DNA of 50,309 nt from Shigella phage Sfin-3: the sequence record MN296515; one strand, given 5' to 3'. The position numbers were made by a program, and so were the translations under genes. Below, piece by piece: positions 3,100-43,436 of this stretch (the stretch's first letter is position 1; the number at the start of each line of letters is the position of its first letter). The notes beneath the pieces were generated by a model. It searched no databases, was not told the DNA's origin, and was given only the letters and a program-made list of their open reading frames with translations.

Positions 3100-3672
3100 A
3101 TGAAAACAGCTATCATTTTAAACGGCGCTCCTGGAGCAGGCAAGGACACTATCGGATGCATCCTGGCTGACACTTACGATCATGTAGCTTTGCGCAGCTT
3201 CAAAGCACCAATGTTTGAGATTGCTCGGGCAATACTGGGTGAGGCTAACTACGAGTATTTCATGTTCTTGTATGAGGATCGTCGTTACAAAGAAGAGCCA
3301 GCGTCAATCCTGAACGGTAAAAGCCCTCGCCAGTTTATGATCTGGATTAGCGAGGAAGTCATCAAGCCACAGTTCGGAAATCGATTCTTCGGTATGCGAG
3401 CGGAAAGCAAGGTCAAAGAGTCATATTCTCTGTCAGTATTTACTGATGGTGGATTCAAAGATGAGGTATTGCAGATGATTGAAGGTGATATCCAGGTCAA
3501 GCTATGCCGAATCCACCGCAAAGGCTGCAACTTTGACAACGACAGTCGTGATTATATTTACCTGGAAGATATGATCGGGGTTAATGGTTATCAGGAGTGT
3601 GATTTTTTCTCTGTCGAAGGTCATCCAGAAATTACCGCTCAGCACATAGCCGCTACGTTCATCAACAAATAG
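3100..3672 (+). CDS. P-loop nucleotide kinase, dNMP kinase (T4 gp1)-like
   Basis: 190 aa; Walker A GAPGAGKDT and ILNGKSPRQ resemble T4 deoxynucleoside monophosphate kinase; TAG stop is first triplet of palindrome 3670-3684. Confidence 0.65.
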   Translation: MKTAIILNGAPGAGKDTIGCILADTYDHVALRSFKAPMFEIARAILGEANYEYFMFLYEDRRYKEEPASILNGKSPRQFMIWISEEVIKPQFGNRFFGMRAESKVKESYSLSVFTDGGFKDEVLQMIEGDIQVKLCRIHRKGCNFDNDSRDYIYLEDMIGVNGYQECDFFSVEGHPEITAQHIAATFINK

Positions 3673-27412: not shown

Positions 27413-28477
27413 ATGTTCCAGGTATTCACATCAAGTCAGCTTTCTAATGACGAGTATCATAGCAACGAAGGTTGGGCGGCAGAGTATGTAAGCGGTTCTA
27501 GCCTTGCAGAAATTTATCAGACTTGCCCGGCTAACTGGCGATTCAAGAAGAACGAGACTACTAAAGCGCTGGAGTTCGGCACTCAGTCGCACACTAACTT
27601 TGAGAGTCGAGATCTGTTTACTGCAACGTATGCGCGTTGTCCTGCTCCGTCAGAGTTTAAGGATCTGATTACTTCGCAGGCAGCACTGGCAGCAAAATTA
27701 AAATCTTTTGGCCTGAAAGGTACATCCGGTAAGCAGTACCCTGACCTCATCAAAATGATGGTTGATTGCGGTGAAGATCTCAATGTTCAATATCTTATTG
27801 AACTGATTGCTGAAGCTGAGGCGCGCGCTGAAGGAAAGCAACTGGTTGACGCTGATAAATATGATGCCTGTATGAAGATGAGGGCCATTCTTGAGCAAAA
27901 TCCCGATCATGAAGCGTGCATCAATAGCGAAACTGCGCAGCGTGAGATCTCAATTTTCGGTGAGATATCCGGCGTCAAGGTTAAGGTTCGACTTGACCAT
28001 TTGGACTACAAAGAGAATGTTCCAGGTCGTGTGCTGACTGGTTATGATGAGAATGGCGATCCGGTATTTGAAGACGTGATTTTTCCTGAAGCTCTGATTA
28101 TCACTGACTTCAAAACCACGATGAGCGCCAACCCGTTAGAGTTCCCGAGACTGGCATACAATCACGGGTATTATCTTAAAATGGCCTTACAGCATGACCT
28201 ATTGCGGCGTGCAATTCAGGCTGGAGCATTTGAAGGAAACTTCCCGGAAGATATTCCGATCGTAGTTCGATTGCTGGCACAGGAGAAAAAGGAACCTTAC
28301 ATTGCCCTTGCTTACCGCATGACTATGGAGCAAATCAGAATAGGTCGCAATCAGTATATTAGCGTGGTCCACACTTATAAGGCTTGCTCTGAGATGGACG
28401 TTTGGCCAGGATATGCTGGCGACGCAAGCGAGATCGAACTTGAAACGCCGTCATGGGTACGATATCAAAACAAGTAA
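27413..28477 (+). CDS. PD-(D/E)XK exonuclease (RecE/Cas4-like recombination nuclease)
   Basis: 354 aa; VRLDHL ... IITDFKTT (D...D/E-x-K core); first gene of exo/annealase/SSB operon. Confidence 0.55.
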   Translation: MFQVFTSSQLSNDEYHSNEGWAAEYVSGSSLAEIYQTCPANWRFKKNETTKALEFGTQSHTNFESRDLFTATYARCPAPSEFKDLITSQAALAAKLKSFGLKGTSGKQYPDLIKMMVDCGEDLNVQYLIELIAEAEARAEGKQLVDADKYDACMKMRAILEQNPDHEACINSETAQREISIFGEISGVKVKVRLDHLDYKENVPGRVLTGYDENGDPVFEDVIFPEALIITDFKTTMSANPLEFPRLAYNHGYYLKMALQHDLLRRAIQAGAFEGNFPEDIPIVVRLLAQEKKEPYIALAYRMTMEQIRIGRNQYISVVHTYKACSEMDVWPGYAGDASEIELETPSWVRYQNK

Positions 28478-28551
28478 ACGGCACAAATAGCTAAACAAAT
28501 AATTAATGAGGTGTTATAATGCACCTCATACACCAATCAGGAGAAGTTAAG

Positions 28552-29199
28552 ATGCAATTATCACCGGAAACAAACGAAATCCTCCCAGCACTGTTTAATG
28601 CTCGCAATAAATTCGCGAAGGCAAAGAAGGACGCTAAAAACAATCACCTGAAGAACTCATACGCAACTCTTGATGCGATGATGGCGGCAGTTAGCCCAGC
28701 GTTAACCGATAACGATATCATGATCCTGCAATCAATGCTGGATACCAGTACAGAAACGACTTTCCATCTTGAAACTATGCTGATTCACAAATCAGGGCAG
28801 TGGGCCAAATTCTTCATGATGATGCCGATTGCAAAACGCGATCCTCAAGGTGTAGGTTCCGCAATGACTTATGCTCGACGCTACTCTCTCGCTGCGGCGC
28901 TTGGTATTAGTCAGAGTGACGACGATGCGCAGCTTGCAGTGAAATCCGTCAAGGACTGGAAAAAAGAACTTGATGCGTGCGAAGATATCGAATCACTGAA
29001 GGATGTATGGGCCAGCGCCTACCGTCAGACTGACACGGCAAGCAAGTCAATCATTCAGGATCACTACAACGCACTTAAGGCTAAGTTTGAGATCGGTAAA
29101 GCTCGTGGTATTCGCCCGGCGCAACCGGAACAGAAAAAACAGGTTGAAGCAACTAGCGCGAAGCCTGTACAATCTCAATCAATCACCAACTTTGAATAA
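28552..29199 (+). CDS. single-strand annealing protein (Erf/Rad52-like)
   Basis: ATG 28552 with ACCAATCAGGAG RBS; position between exonuclease and SSB; call is by context. Confidence 0.5.
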   Translation: MQLSPETNEILPALFNARNKFAKAKKDAKNNHLKNSYATLDAMMAAVSPALTDNDIMILQSMLDTSTETTFHLETMLIHKSGQWAKFFMMMPIAKRDPQGVGSAMTYARRYSLAAALGISQSDDDAQLAVKSVKDWKKELDACEDIESLKDVWASAYRQTDTASKSIIQDHYNALKAKFEIGKARGIRPAQPEQKKQVEATSAKPVQSQSITNFE

Positions 29200-29245: not shown

Positions 29246-29659
29246 ATGCATATTATTACTGGCGAGATCCGAAAAGAACCTAAGATTCTTGAACGTAACG
29301 GCGGGAATACTTATATAATCGAACTGGCAGAGAGCTACAAGCCTCGAGATGGAGATCGAGAATACACCAACTACACATTCTTTTTTAGCGACGGTGGAAA
29401 GCCTGGCCTTGCTGACTGGTATCGTGAAGCGTTCCAGGTTGGTCGCGTCGTATCAGTATCATGCGAGACGTTGAAGATCTCATCACGTGAACACAATGGA
29501 ACGGTTTACAATTCATTGCAGGCCGCTGACTTCCCGAAGTTGGTATTTAGTCAACGAGGACAAAGCAATCAACAACGATCACCGCAGCAACAACAGCGAA
29601 CACAATCACAACCACAGCCAAATCCTCAATCAACTTTCGATGATGATATCCCGTTCTAA
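29246..29659 (+). CDS. ssb: single-stranded DNA-binding protein
   Basis: 137 aa; OB-fold-like N-terminus, Gln/Pro-rich linker, canonical SSB C-terminal tail DDDIPF. Confidence 0.85.
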   Translation: MHIITGEIRKEPKILERNGGNTYIIELAESYKPRDGDREYTNYTFFFSDGGKPGLADWYREAFQVGRVVSVSCETLKISSREHNGTVYNSLQAADFPKLVFSQRGQSNQQRSPQQQQRTQSQPQPNPQSTFDDDIPF

Positions 29660-40856: not shown

Positions 40857-42425
40857 TTAACCCATCAGTCTAGGATTGATGAAAACAATATCATCAATGC
40901 GGCAAGTGTAGTTCATCTCTTCGAGCGTGATCAGCAGGCTATCGATTCGCTCAGATACTTTCTGTTGACCGTTGAACGGAGTAACGTTCCGGCACTTTGC
41001 AACGATGCTATGAATAGGAGCGCGCCCTTTATTCTTCTTTGCGATCTCAGTGATAACATCAATCAGCTTACGAGATTCAGCCTCATCACCAGCATACCCG
41101 GCAGCGCTGGCAGACGACAGATAAGTCCTGGAAAGCTCATTGAAGATCATGATTGCTTCCTGCATTGTTTCAAGGTCAATCTCACGGTTGGAACGGTTCG
41201 GTGATTCACCCTCCCAATTCTTGATCGTGTGGAGAACTGAAGCAATACGCAAGGCGTGCTTATCGAACTTGCCGAGATGACCGCGTAGCATTGAGTGAGA
41301 GTATTTCCCACCTGCGGCGAAATCCGGTTCCATCGCCTGACGCGAAAGGTTTAATTCACGCATAGCATTACGGCTTACAGAAAGAACAACGTTTTCCTCC
41401 TTCATAATGTTGTGCACGAGTCGATAATATTTACTCACCAATCCTCGATCGACTTCCTTATACAGTGCATCACCATTTTCATCGCAAAGGATACGAGTGC
41501 CTAAAAGAGGTTCCTCACGAACAAGAAGGAAGCGCTCAGATACGCCGATTCCTCGTTGGCCTGCGTCCATGATACCCTTGATTGTTTCATCCTGCGCAAT
41601 AACGCAGATGGAACCGACCGGGCAAAGGGACAAGTTGTTATCCTGGTTGGAACGCGCTACCTCCATATGGTTTTTATCCCACGCCTTAAGGATAAGCTCA
41701 CTATTTGATTTCTTGTCTGAACCACCATAAGTCAGGCCGAGCAATGTATTGATTGCTGTCGCCTCATCAGAGATTACGGAGAAATGACCTTGAACAGCGG
41801 CTACCTTCGCAAGACCTTCAGGTGTAGGATCTGATACCGCGAAAACAATATCAGCCATCTTCTTGATCTTCTCTTCCAGTTTTTCCTTGTCCTCGTACAG
41901 CGCCGCCGTCGTGTTACCCTTCGGGTCGTTTTTAATTTCCTTCTCGACCTGACGTAGCTGACTGGTTAAACGGATACGTTCCTTTTTTCGCTCTTCATTC
42001 AGTCGCTGAATCTCTGCGCGCATAGGCGTAATCGCTGCGGAGTTAATCGCAGATTTACCTGTTGAAGGTGGCTGGCTGATTACCATGTAAAGAGCGGTAG
42101 GTTGTTCTTCTCCGTGATATTGCACCCAAAACTTCCCGAGCATCGCGGCTGAGATGCACCCAATGAAATGAGCGTACGCAGACGAAACAGGGAACTGTAC
42201 AGACTCGGCCTTTGCTTTTGCATATTCGAATACCAGGTTATCGCCACCTAACGAAATCAGAGGGAACTTATCGTTGCCGCTATTGATATCGATCGGATCT
42301 TGCCAAAATGAAACTGAGTCACCATAGCTGTTTTCACGAATTGCGATTGCCACCGGATTAACTCCAGTGCTATTGGCGATCTCAATAATCTGTTGGTAAT
42401 TCAGTTTTGGCTTAATATTAAACAT
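40857..42425 (-). CDS. P-loop NTPase (Walker A/B), putative replication/helicase-like ATPase
   Basis: ATG 42425 with AAGGAG RBS (track TTG 42488 is inside promoter hairpin); Walker A QPPSTGKSA, Walker B FSVISDEA; 522 aa. Confidence 0.6.
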   Translation of the reverse strand: MFNIKPKLNYQQIIEIANSTGVNPVAIAIRENSYGDSVSFWQDPIDINSGNDKFPLISLGGDNLVFEYAKAKAESVQFPVSSAYAHFIGCISAAMLGKFWVQYHGEEQPTALYMVISQPPSTGKSAINSAAITPMRAEIQRLNEERKKERIRLTSQLRQVEKEIKNDPKGNTTAALYEDKEKLEEKIKKMADIVFAVSDPTPEGLAKVAAVQGHFSVISDEATAINTLLGLTYGGSDKKSNSELILKAWDKNHMEVARSNQDNNLSLCPVGSICVIAQDETIKGIMDAGQRGIGVSERFLLVREEPLLGTRILCDENGDALYKEVDRGLVSKYYRLVHNIMKEENVVLSVSRNAMRELNLSRQAMEPDFAAGGKYSHSMLRGHLGKFDKHALRIASVLHTIKNWEGESPNRSNREIDLETMQEAIMIFNELSRTYLSSASAAGYAGDEAESRKLIDVITEIAKKNKGRAPIHSIVAKCRNVTPFNGQQKVSERIDSLLITLEEMNYTCRIDDIVFINPRLMG

Positions 42426-42454
42426 CACAATAAACTCCTTAGTTGACGGTGTAA

Positions 42455-42497
42455 ATGATACACCGCCAATGGTATACGCTTTTTGCAAAAAGTGCTA
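42455..42497 (-). promoter_or_regulatory. composite promoter module, minus strand (TAGCA-ctttt-TGCAA, 22 nt, -10 TATCAT)
   Basis: Palindrome 42483-42497; -10 42455-42460 inside hairpin 42448-42464; ATG 42425. Confidence 0.5.
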
Positions 42498-42501
42498 TTG
42501 G

Positions 42502-42918
42502 TTATAAGTATTTGGCCTCAAAGGTTGTGCCGTCTGCGATACTAAAACCAACCTCTTCGCGAAACAAGGTCCATCGACAACCATCTTCATCAAAGATGTA
42601 ACCAGCTACGCCACCGAGAGCGCGACCGCTTTCAACCTGGTAACGCTTGCCAACTTTGAATGATTTTTTCATTGGGTTGCGATGGTCAAGCCCGGTGCAC
42701 TTGAGCGTCTTTGTTTTCAACTCAGTGAACTTCGCGAAGAAGATTTCATCAGATCCGTGAATCTGTAATTCATCATGCTTTTCAAGTTTTAAATACTTGC
42801 CGCATTTTAACTTGATTTCACGAGTGCCATCATAGCGCTCACGACCCTTGTATAGGTTGTTTACTTCAAATCCTGTGATTTTATCTGTGTAAGTGCATTT
42901 CAGTTTGATGGATTTCAT
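42502..42918 (-). CDS. hypothetical protein (138 aa)
   Basis: Track ORF; AACCAATCAGGAG RBS; module 42955-42997 upstream. Confidence 0.55.
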   Translation of the reverse strand: MKSIKLKCTYTDKITGFEVNNLYKGRERYDGTREIKLKCGKYLKLEKHDELQIHGSDEIFFAKFTELKTKTLKCTGLDHRNPMKKSFKVGKRYQVESGRALGGVAGYIFDEDGCRWTLFREEVGFSIADGTTFEAKYL

Positions 42919-42954
42919 TTCGTTAACTCCTGATTGGTTATCTTGAATAAGGTC

Positions 42955-42997
42955 ACTTTATCAAATGACCTTACGGCAATATTAACAAATCGTGCTA
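42955..42997 (-). promoter_or_regulatory. composite promoter module, minus strand (TAGCA-cgatt-TGTTA, 22 nt, -10 TAAAGT)
   Basis: Palindrome 42983-42997; -10 42955-42960 inside hairpin 42950-42972; ATG 42918. Confidence 0.5.
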
Positions 42998-42998
42998 T

Positions 42999-43208
42999 TT
43001 ACCAGGGAATATAATCGTCGTCGTCTTCATTAATATCATCACTAGGTAATTCAAAGTTAGGATCGTATTCGCTTTCAGCATCCATATCCATATCGCCAAG
43101 AGCCTCATCAAGTGTTATTTCTTTATATGCAACCTTGATGCACCATTCGGCACTAAGTCCAGCATCAAGCGCTGCAAAATAACGGGTCCAAAAATTATCC
43201 TGCTCCAT
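42999..43208 (-). CDS. small acidic protein with SSB-C-terminus-like tail
   Basis: 69 aa; C-terminus ...INEDDDDYIPW resembles the SSB tip DDDIPF; GGAG RBS. Confidence 0.55.
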   Translation of the reverse strand: MEQDNFWTRYFAALDAGLSAEWCIKVAYKEITLDEALGDMDMDAESEYDPNFELPSDDINEDDDDYIPW

Positions 43209-43211
43209 TAA

Positions 43212-43436
43212 TTAACTCCATGAATTAATATAAATTGAGCTTGCTTCAAGCGTAGCACGAACATCGGCATCTGTTGCATTTACTAAGCGCGAGCCTGGCG
43301 TGCTGCCGATAACGTTATTACCGTTACGAGTCTTAGTTACCGTCATTGAAATAAAGCCGGAAGACTTATCCATTTTGATAACTACACGGCCTTTCGCGTT
43401 CAGGTGCTTGATGATATTCTCAACTTTAATGCTCAT
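43212..43436 (-). CDS. hypothetical protein (74 aa)
   Basis: Track ORF; module 43469-43512 upstream. Confidence 0.55.
   Translation of the reverse strand: MSIKVENIIKHLNAKGRVVIKMDKSSGFISMTVTKTRNGNNVIGSTPGSRLVNATDADVRATLEASSIYINSWS

Follow-up and report, generated by a model that had tools for sequence, protein, structure and literature searches.

The C-terminal tip of the bacterial single-stranded DNA (ssDNA)-binding protein (SSB) is the docking peptide of the SSB interactome and serves bacterial genome maintenance as its central address label. It is read by about twenty enzymes and has been pursued as an antibiotic target. Here we examine a 69-aa protein of Shigella phage Sfin-3 (sequence record MN296515), encoded by an open reading frame (ORF) that starts with ATG on the minus strand at 42999..43208 of the 50,309-nucleotide stretch that was analysed, referred to hereafter as the window. 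The protein ends in ...INEDDDDYIPW, a peptide that resembles the SSB tip. We tentatively favor the view, which we hold at somewhat less than an even chance, that it is a non-DNA-binding protein that docks by an SSB-type tip and competes with SSB tails for their clients. A literature search found no description of a small phage protein that has an SSB tip and lacks an oligonucleotide-binding (OB) fold, nor of the tail sequence itself. Judging from the sequence, the new aspect would be a docking peptide of a known kind on a new and minimal carrier.

Phage proteins with tails of this general type have been described, and the closest of them differ from the Sfin-3 protein in the body that carries the tail. 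The helicase-primase of T7, gp4, is a replication protein other than an SSB that has an SSB-like acidic tail with an aromatic end. PDB 6P7E includes a peptide, DTDF, that imitates the tail of gp4, and with this peptide as template the gp2.5 tail was placed on the T7 DNA polymerase (PMC12339929). That modelling, taken with the biology of T7, suggests that the gp2.5 and gp4 tails share one site on the polymerase. The T7 tails are carried by large DNA-binding enzymes and end in Asp-Phe without a proline; unlike these carriers, the 69-aa protein has no recognisable enzymatic or DNA-binding domain. Bas52_0087 is a phage SSB-like protein that ends in FDDDIPF and is required to trigger DRT10, and its authors suggest that it may compete with SbcB/ExoI (bioRxiv 10.64898/2026.04.29.721553). 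It is similar to the Sfin-3 protein in being a phage-encoded carrier of an SSB-type tip that is proposed to act on host enzymes that process ssDNA. It differs in its large size and its two OB folds, presumably binds ssDNA in earnest as a true SSB would, and is not homologous to the 69-aa family. In phage HK620 the tail of the SSB (NDYPPF) is needed for the phage annealase Sak4 (PMC5928155), an indication that phage recombination proteins also read SSB-type tips; there the tip sits on a true SSB, and no separate small tip-bearing protein is involved. Given the Sak4 precedent, the ERF recombinase encoded in the window is a plausible client, or a plausible target for a competitor.

The 69-aa protein, MEQDNFWTRYFAALDAGLSAEWCIKVAYKEITLDEALGDMDMDAESEYDPNFELPSDDINEDDDDYIPW, contains 21 Asp/Glu and only 3 Lys/Arg residues, which gives it an isoelectric point of 4.05 and a net charge of -18. 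The second half is the more extreme, with 15 Asp/Glu and no Lys/Arg in residues 35-69. A sequence-only reading of the window had described a strongly acidic protein of this length with an SSB-tip-like end and had noted that the SSB of the phage itself ends in DDDIPF; both descriptions were confirmed, the latter by a match of the SSB to PHROG 44 and by the location of the DDDIPF codons at 29639..29656. The statement that the two ends are near-identical was somewhat overstated. The acidic-Ile-Pro-aromatic order is present, but a Tyr separates the Asp run from Ile-Pro, and the last residue is Trp rather than Phe. Relative to the E. coli tip (...MDFDDDIPF), the protein has the same peptide at its extreme C terminus, an aromatic residue that follows a hydrophobic residue (-2) and Pro (-1) (Y-I-P-W-stop), with an acidic run (EDDDD) directly upstream. 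The run of Asp/Glu before the tip is a feature that the Tunavirus branch of the family has in common with bacterial SSB, and the linker that carries it may be disordered as in SSB. In contrast with SSB, there is no OB fold: there was no Pfam SSB match, no strands were predicted, and the net charge makes DNA binding implausible. The 69-aa protein very probably does not bind DNA.

Ends of this type are rare. Six-frame translation of the window gives 320 ORFs of 40 aa or more, and the phage SSB and the 69-aa protein are the only two of them that end in [ILMVF]-P-[FW]. When about 1,300 six-frame ORFs from four Drexlerviridae genomes (three whole genomes and bases 1-44800 of ETEP102) were scanned, only 2 proteins outside the SSBs and the 69-aa family had such an end. 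Because these ends are so uncommon, the C-terminal motif appears to be far from a chance feature. Two tip-bearing proteins of other kinds were encountered. ETEP102_14 of Escherichia phage ETEP102 (locus L083, 4945..5562) is a 205-aa deoxynucleoside monophosphate (dNMP)-kinase-like protein that ends in ...DEWADDIPW. Its orthologues in the window (3100..3672, plus strand) and in phages LL5 and CS01 lack the tip, which looks like a sporadically acquired tag on an enzyme of nucleotide metabolism. CS01_026 of Cronobacter phage CS01 (locus L082, 20853..21122, minus strand) is an 89-aa hypothetical protein with the acidic end ...WEYVEELPF, an end that is missing from its weak LL5 relative.

The strongest evidence that the tip matters comes from its conservation. 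In an alignment of 64 Tunavirus-type sequences, all 4 columns of the tip were invariant, compared to 5 of 38 columns in the N-terminal head and none of 18 in the linker, and no block other than YIPW was invariant throughout. Each of the 62 close orthologues of full length ends in YIPW or CIPW, while the acidic stretch that precedes these residues is variable. The codons of the tip vary synonymously (TAT and TAC for Tyr; CCC, CCT and CCG for Pro), and in a sister group that ends in CFPF both synonymous forms were found at all four codons. Fixed residues encoded by varying synonymous codons indicate that selection acts on the tip as a peptide and not on the DNA.

The tip is retained across a much wider family. 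The 69-aa protein belongs over its whole length to PHROG 9085 (E = 2.2e-45, residues 1-69 aligned to the 69 profile positions), and its head also matches PHROG 9323 from Drexlerviridae and PHROG 4823 from Ackermannviridae; all three are listed as "unknown function". Profile searches yielded a set of 180 proteins, 178 of which have a hydrophobic-Pro-Phe/Trp end: FPF in 103, IPW in 63, IPF in 9, and LPF, MPF and IPFW in one each. One of the two exceptions is a frameshifted annotation and the other ends in FPL. The common architecture is a head of about 35 residues, an ALGxMDMDxES patch, a replaceable middle and the hydrophobic-Pro-aromatic end. Seven head residues (R9, G17, L18, V26, A27, L37 and G38) are invariant across the family, and (A)LGxMDMDxES is the best conserved signature, which was picked automatically as the most conserved stretch when loci were sought. 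The middle is an acidic coil in Tunavirus, and members of the acidic branch carry a mean net charge of -4.4 over the 8 residues before the tip. In 115 of the 180 members the middle is instead a four-cysteine (Cys4) knuckle, C.C-x(4-8)-C..C, placed directly before the tip; the Sfin-3 protein has a single cysteine (C23) and no knuckle. Among representatives chosen at 50% identity, further ends were KFDDGIPF, DYDDFIPW, WGDEIPW, FMGIPF, FDFDQLPF, NNHLPF and SVEPF, and the FDDGIPF end agrees with FDDDIPF of the phage SSB at 6 of 7 positions. A strongly diverged Braunvirinae branch, exemplified by gp19 of IME253 (58 aa; E = 0.086 against the family hidden Markov model), is syntenic, shares the architecture and ends in CxxC-IPF (12 sequences) or CxEC-LPF-I (29 sequences).

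In some deposited genomes the family gene is disrupted. These include the records of Shigella phage vB_SsoS_008 (locus L020, 812..1108; P0063) and DELF2 (locus L032, 3001..3087; P0064) as well as loci L081 and L045, and the lesions seen were a fusion to the upstream gene truncated after MDMD, a frameshift that splits the gene, a truncation, and a Pro-to-Gln change in the tip (CFQF). Such alleles reflect either errors in sequencing or natural knock-outs that remain viable. Because broken alleles occur in deposited genomes, the gene is probably not strictly essential.

The sequence-only reading had proposed structure prediction as a check, and a single-chain AlphaFold2 (AF2) model was made from a 52-sequence alignment (mean predicted local distance difference test score, pLDDT, of 65). 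The head was predicted with a pLDDT of about 68-78, and of about 70-78 in its three helices (Table 1), and there were no strands; residues 40-69 had no secondary structure and a pLDDT of 53-60, as far as a prediction can show. In a knuckle-type member the model consisted of a matching head and a moderately confident knuckle (pLDDT ~72). A helical head with an unstructured tail that ends in the tip, as in an SSB tail, was predicted, and a rigid acidic fold was not. In the model a folded head leads through a flexible linker to a terminal peptide, an arrangement that would correspond to the tail of SSB on a different body.

Neither sequence nor fold searches connected this body to a characterised protein. 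Pfam gave only sub-threshold noise for the 69-aa protein (SbcC_Walker_B, E = 0.033; SgrT, E = 0.12) and no match for the larger head-containing proteins. A search of PDB sequences with the family profile returned one designed repeat protein at a meaningless E = 0.68. Foldseek against PDB found nothing that resembles the AF2 model (best match E = 5.6), and against BFVD its matches were confined to members of the family and to Ackermannviridae head-domain proteins, none of which is characterised. A phmmer match (P0190) to the repeats of eukaryotic CCDC53, a WASH subunit, was set aside as uninformative: the likeness is one of helical hairpins in general, and the six repeats raised its score. Other C-terminal peptides were also considered and set aside as improbable on their consensus forms: the beta-clamp-binding motif (QL[SD]LF type), the DIPxFL peptide at the C terminus of FtsZ and an outer-membrane-protein-like YxF end would not fit (no Gln; wrong spacing; no signal peptide).

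The terminal Trp is compatible with an SSB tip. When viral contigs were scanned for D-D-D-I-P-W-stop, at least 120 loci matched, with 102 distinct proteins among the matches listed, the set to which the following counts refer. A Pfam SSB domain was found in 31 of the 102, one further protein was gp32-like and one was an Enc34-like ssDNA binder, and by PHROG most of the remainder belong to SSB families. As many carriers of DDDIPW are SSBs, Trp is a natural alternative to Phe in the SSB tip. The scan also returned a 587-aa DnaB/Toprim primase-helicase that ends in ...DDDIPW (IMG/VR contig, locus L172, 2798..4561, minus strand). This protein and the dNMP-kinase-like protein of ETEP102 suggest that SSB-type tips are occasionally placed on replication proteins other than SSBs. 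Proteins of PHROGs 25370, 862 and 6599, all of unknown function, and DUF6511 proteins also end in DDDIPW (loci L085-L204). Locus L194 has a doubled tip, ...IPFDDDIPW, and L203 is a 52-aa ORF that ends in FPFDDDIPW.

The window is essentially the complete genome of a T1-like phage (Tunavirus, Drexlerviridae). The 1.6 kb around the ORF share 98.8% identity with Escherichia phage XJA18, and the gene is also present in T1 itself. The stop codon of the upstream gene (43212..43436, minus strand) lies 3 nt before the ATG of the 69-aa ORF and a Shine-Dalgarno sequence precedes that ATG (Table 1), so the gene sits in a tightly packed leftward string and is probably transcribed together with the upstream gene and coupled to it in translation. 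Between the 69-aa ORF and the gene for a DUF3987 helicase lies only 42502..42918, whose 138-aa product is of unknown function. The position upstream of this helicase, often adjoining a DNA methylase gene, is conserved in Drexlerviridae, where it was found in Tunavirus, Tlsvirus, Warwickvirus, Hanrivervirus, Webervirus, Kyungwonvirus, Hicfunavirus, Rtpvirus and Veterinaerplatzvirus or, grouped differently, in Tunavirus, Tempevirinae, Braunvirinae, Webervirus, Kyungwonvirus and Hicfunavirus. The family is present in all Drexlerviridae subfamilies sampled. The phage SSB is encoded elsewhere in the window, after the exonuclease (27413..28477) and ERF recombinase (28519..29199) genes of an exonuclease-ERF-SSB module.

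Table 1. Features of the 69-aa protein gene and of the two comparison genes in the window (residue numbers refer to the 69-aa protein; CDS, coding sequence).
Feature	Position	Strand	Evidence or remark
Whole CDS, 69-aa acidic protein, PHROG 9085	42999..43208	-	Stop codon at 42999..43001; 62 near-orthologues, 67-99% identity
Predicted helical head domain, residues 1-38	43095..43208	-	AF2 helices 6-15, 20-27, 33-36; invariant residues; head-only homologues
Acidic patch DMDMDAESE, residues 39-47	43068..43094	-	Part of the conserved (A)LGxMDMDxES motif
Variable acidic linker, residues 48-65	43014..43067	-	0/18 columns invariant; no predicted secondary structure
C-terminal tip Y-I-P-W, residues 66-69	43002..43013	-	4/4 columns invariant, 64 sequences
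Shine-Dalgarno GGAG	43216..43219	-	7 nt upstream of ATG; read from sequence
DUF3987 "DNA helicase", two genes downstream in the leftward string	40857..42488	-	Conserved neighbourhood in every Drexlerviridae genus examined
Phage SSB, comparator	29246..29659	+	PHROG 44 match; ends ...STFDDDIPF

A scan for promoters and terminators around the gene did not rise above background (21 promoter-like sites, 18.8 expected from shuffled sequence). The 80-nt gap before the next downstream gene (42502..42918) contains a 7-bp inverted repeat, AAGGTCA-(10 nt)-TGACCTT, at 42949..42972, which the terminator scan did not detect; one related record has a terminator and a promoter annotated in this area in place of a CDS. 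Some family members are labelled "putative cytosine DNA methylase" in GenBank (locus L005, 2501..2725; JLBYU10; XY3; GH-K1; BUCT705; Pseudomonas phage Motto). We rejected this identity: a 74-aa protein is too small for a methyltransferase, and the label looks to have been carried over from the neighbouring methylase gene. All other labels for the family are "hypothetical" or "unknown function".

How might such a protein act? If it competes with SSB tails, the YIPW tip would insert into a hydrophobic, basic-rimmed pocket of the kind that reads the SSB tip (acidic-Ile-Pro-Phe-COOH), carried by a host genome-maintenance enzyme or by a phage replication or recombination protein, and the head would add another contact or mediate oligomerisation. 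The most likely net effect would be competition with the SSB tails of host and phage for at least one client during phage DNA replication and recombination. For example, 3' ssDNA ends might be kept away from ExoI-type nucleases; by the logic of the RecE and RecF pathways, a phage that relies on an exonuclease and ERF annealing would gain by keeping ExoI- or RecJ-type nucleases off its 3' tails. The idea of the tip as a functional SSB-like docking peptide, put forward in the sequence-only reading, is consistent with a tip that is the most constrained part of the protein, is kept while the linker is replaced, is under selection at the protein level, has a natural terminal Trp and is predicted to be placed as in an SSB tail. 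The decoy for ExoI, RecQ, RecO, PriA or Pol III chi that the same reading suggested is a hypothesis. A bolder form of the proposal, which we regard as doubtful, is that the protein is the first known viral "SSB-tip decoy", a tiny non-DNA-binding protein, conserved in Drexlerviridae, that uses its tip and a head contact to disable or divert selected members of the SSB interactome of the host, or to blind a defence system that reads the SSB tip. The targets would be proteins such as ExoI, RecJ-type nucleases, RecQ or PriA, and the outcome would be protection of ERF/exonuclease recombination-dependent replication of the phage.

A number of observations weigh against competition for SSB clients, and in particular against a strict mimic of the SSB tip. 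The Tyr at position -3 of the Sfin-3 protein replaces an Asp of SSB. The 115 knuckle members have no acidic run, and their mean net charge over the 8 residues before the tip is +0.4. Some relatives add a residue after the Phe (IPFW in Webervirus, LPFI in many Braunvirinae), so that the Phe carboxylate is not free; a free carboxylate is needed for canonical recognition of the SSB tip. Different tips (IPW, FPF, IPF, LPFI) are fixed in lineages that share one host, while the phages' own SSBs end constantly in DIPF (FDDDIPF in the four genomes compared, with no covariation between this end and the family tip, and FDSDIPF in IME253). Because the tips vary by lineage and the SSB ends do not, there are hints of a phage-encoded partner, with which tips fixed by lineage might have co-evolved; they would fit this better than a conserved host pocket. 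The head-containing proteins of Ackermannviridae are about 185 aa long, have the head in the middle and end in ...WLDSRL, with no tip, and a head that occurs without a tip implies that it has a function of its own. Finally, the family gene was not found near the helicase of VLCpiS13a (Klebsiella), pIS4-A (Aeromonas) or XCL1123 (Pseudoalteromonas), more distant phages with a matching helicase/primase/SSB set, in flanks of up to 7 kb per side, or less in pIS4-A, the record of which stops 0.4 kb upstream of the helicase. The Ackermannviridae proteins come from Kuttervirus- and Taipeivirus-like phages (locus L011, 2240..2797; L012, 2240..2797; L010, 2225..2800), are annotated "membrane protein" and carry the patch variant ALGDMD(M/C)(D/E)AEA.

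Two serious rivals draw on these observations. The end may dock in a pocket that does not read SSB, likely on a lineage-specific phage protein, and the likeness to DDDIPF in Tunavirus would then be convergent or incidental. The absence of an acidic run from most family members, the IPFW and LPFI variants that are one residue longer, and tips that are specific to lineages when those of host and phage SSBs are constant would all be expected from such a pocket. We nevertheless consider it unlikely, as independent lineages converge on ends that are close to a real SSB tail (FDDGIPF, DYDDFIPW, FDFDQLPF and DDDDYIPW) and, among the matches listed, an acidic IPW end in viral contigs overwhelmingly marks ssDNA-binding proteins. 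Alternatively, the protein could be a bridging adaptor with a head that binds a phage replication protein such as the DUF3987 helicase and a tip that recruits a reader of the SSB tip (Pol III chi-psi, DnaG, PriA or the phage ERF, for example), coupling host enzymes to the phage replisome. The bipartite architecture, with a head that is an independent domain in other proteins, is what an adaptor would need, and the conserved position in the replication string and the presence in every Drexlerviridae subfamily sampled are consistent with this role. The genes of the tipless Ackermannviridae head proteins adjoin the phage DNA polymerase gene, in divergent orientation, tips appear to serve as address tags on the primase-helicase and the dNMP-kinase-like protein, and T7 gp4 holds its polymerase by a tail of this kind. 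An adaptor is harder to reconcile with phages that have the matching helicase, primase and SSB genes but not the protein in the flanks examined, and the frameshifted and broken-tip alleles (vB_SsoS_008, DELF2, L045 and L081) suggest that the protein is probably not an indispensable part of a replisome. On balance we judge the adaptor rather improbable.

The weakest proposal is that the protein mimics DNA or ssDNA in the manner of Ocr, ArdA, Ugi or T7 gp5.9, or that its acidic tail lies in the ssDNA groove of SSB. The extreme charge, concentrated in residues 35-69, is suggestive in this respect, and SSB tails are reported to bind weakly to the DNA-binding site of SSB itself (discussed in PMC5928155). 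A compact DNA-mimic inhibitor, as raised in the sequence-only reading, found no support here: an acidic half that is predicted to lack structure offers no rigid DNA-shaped scaffold, there was no Pfam, PDB-sequence or Foldseek match to a known mimic, the acidic linker is the least conserved part of the protein and is a near-neutral Cys knuckle in most of the family, and the invariant tip would be left without an explanation. We regard mimicry as very improbable.

If the protein does compete for SSB clients through its tip, it would be a natural viral inhibitor or re-router of the SSB hub, and about 70 residues, or the tail alone, would be a compact tool to probe or block interactions between SSB and its clients. 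Trp-ended tips are common in viral SSBs among the matches listed, and the occurrence of tips on SSBs and on other replication proteins suggests that phage replication draws on the tip more widely than is commonly supposed. For the T1-like phages, one conserved "hypothetical" gene would gain a function.
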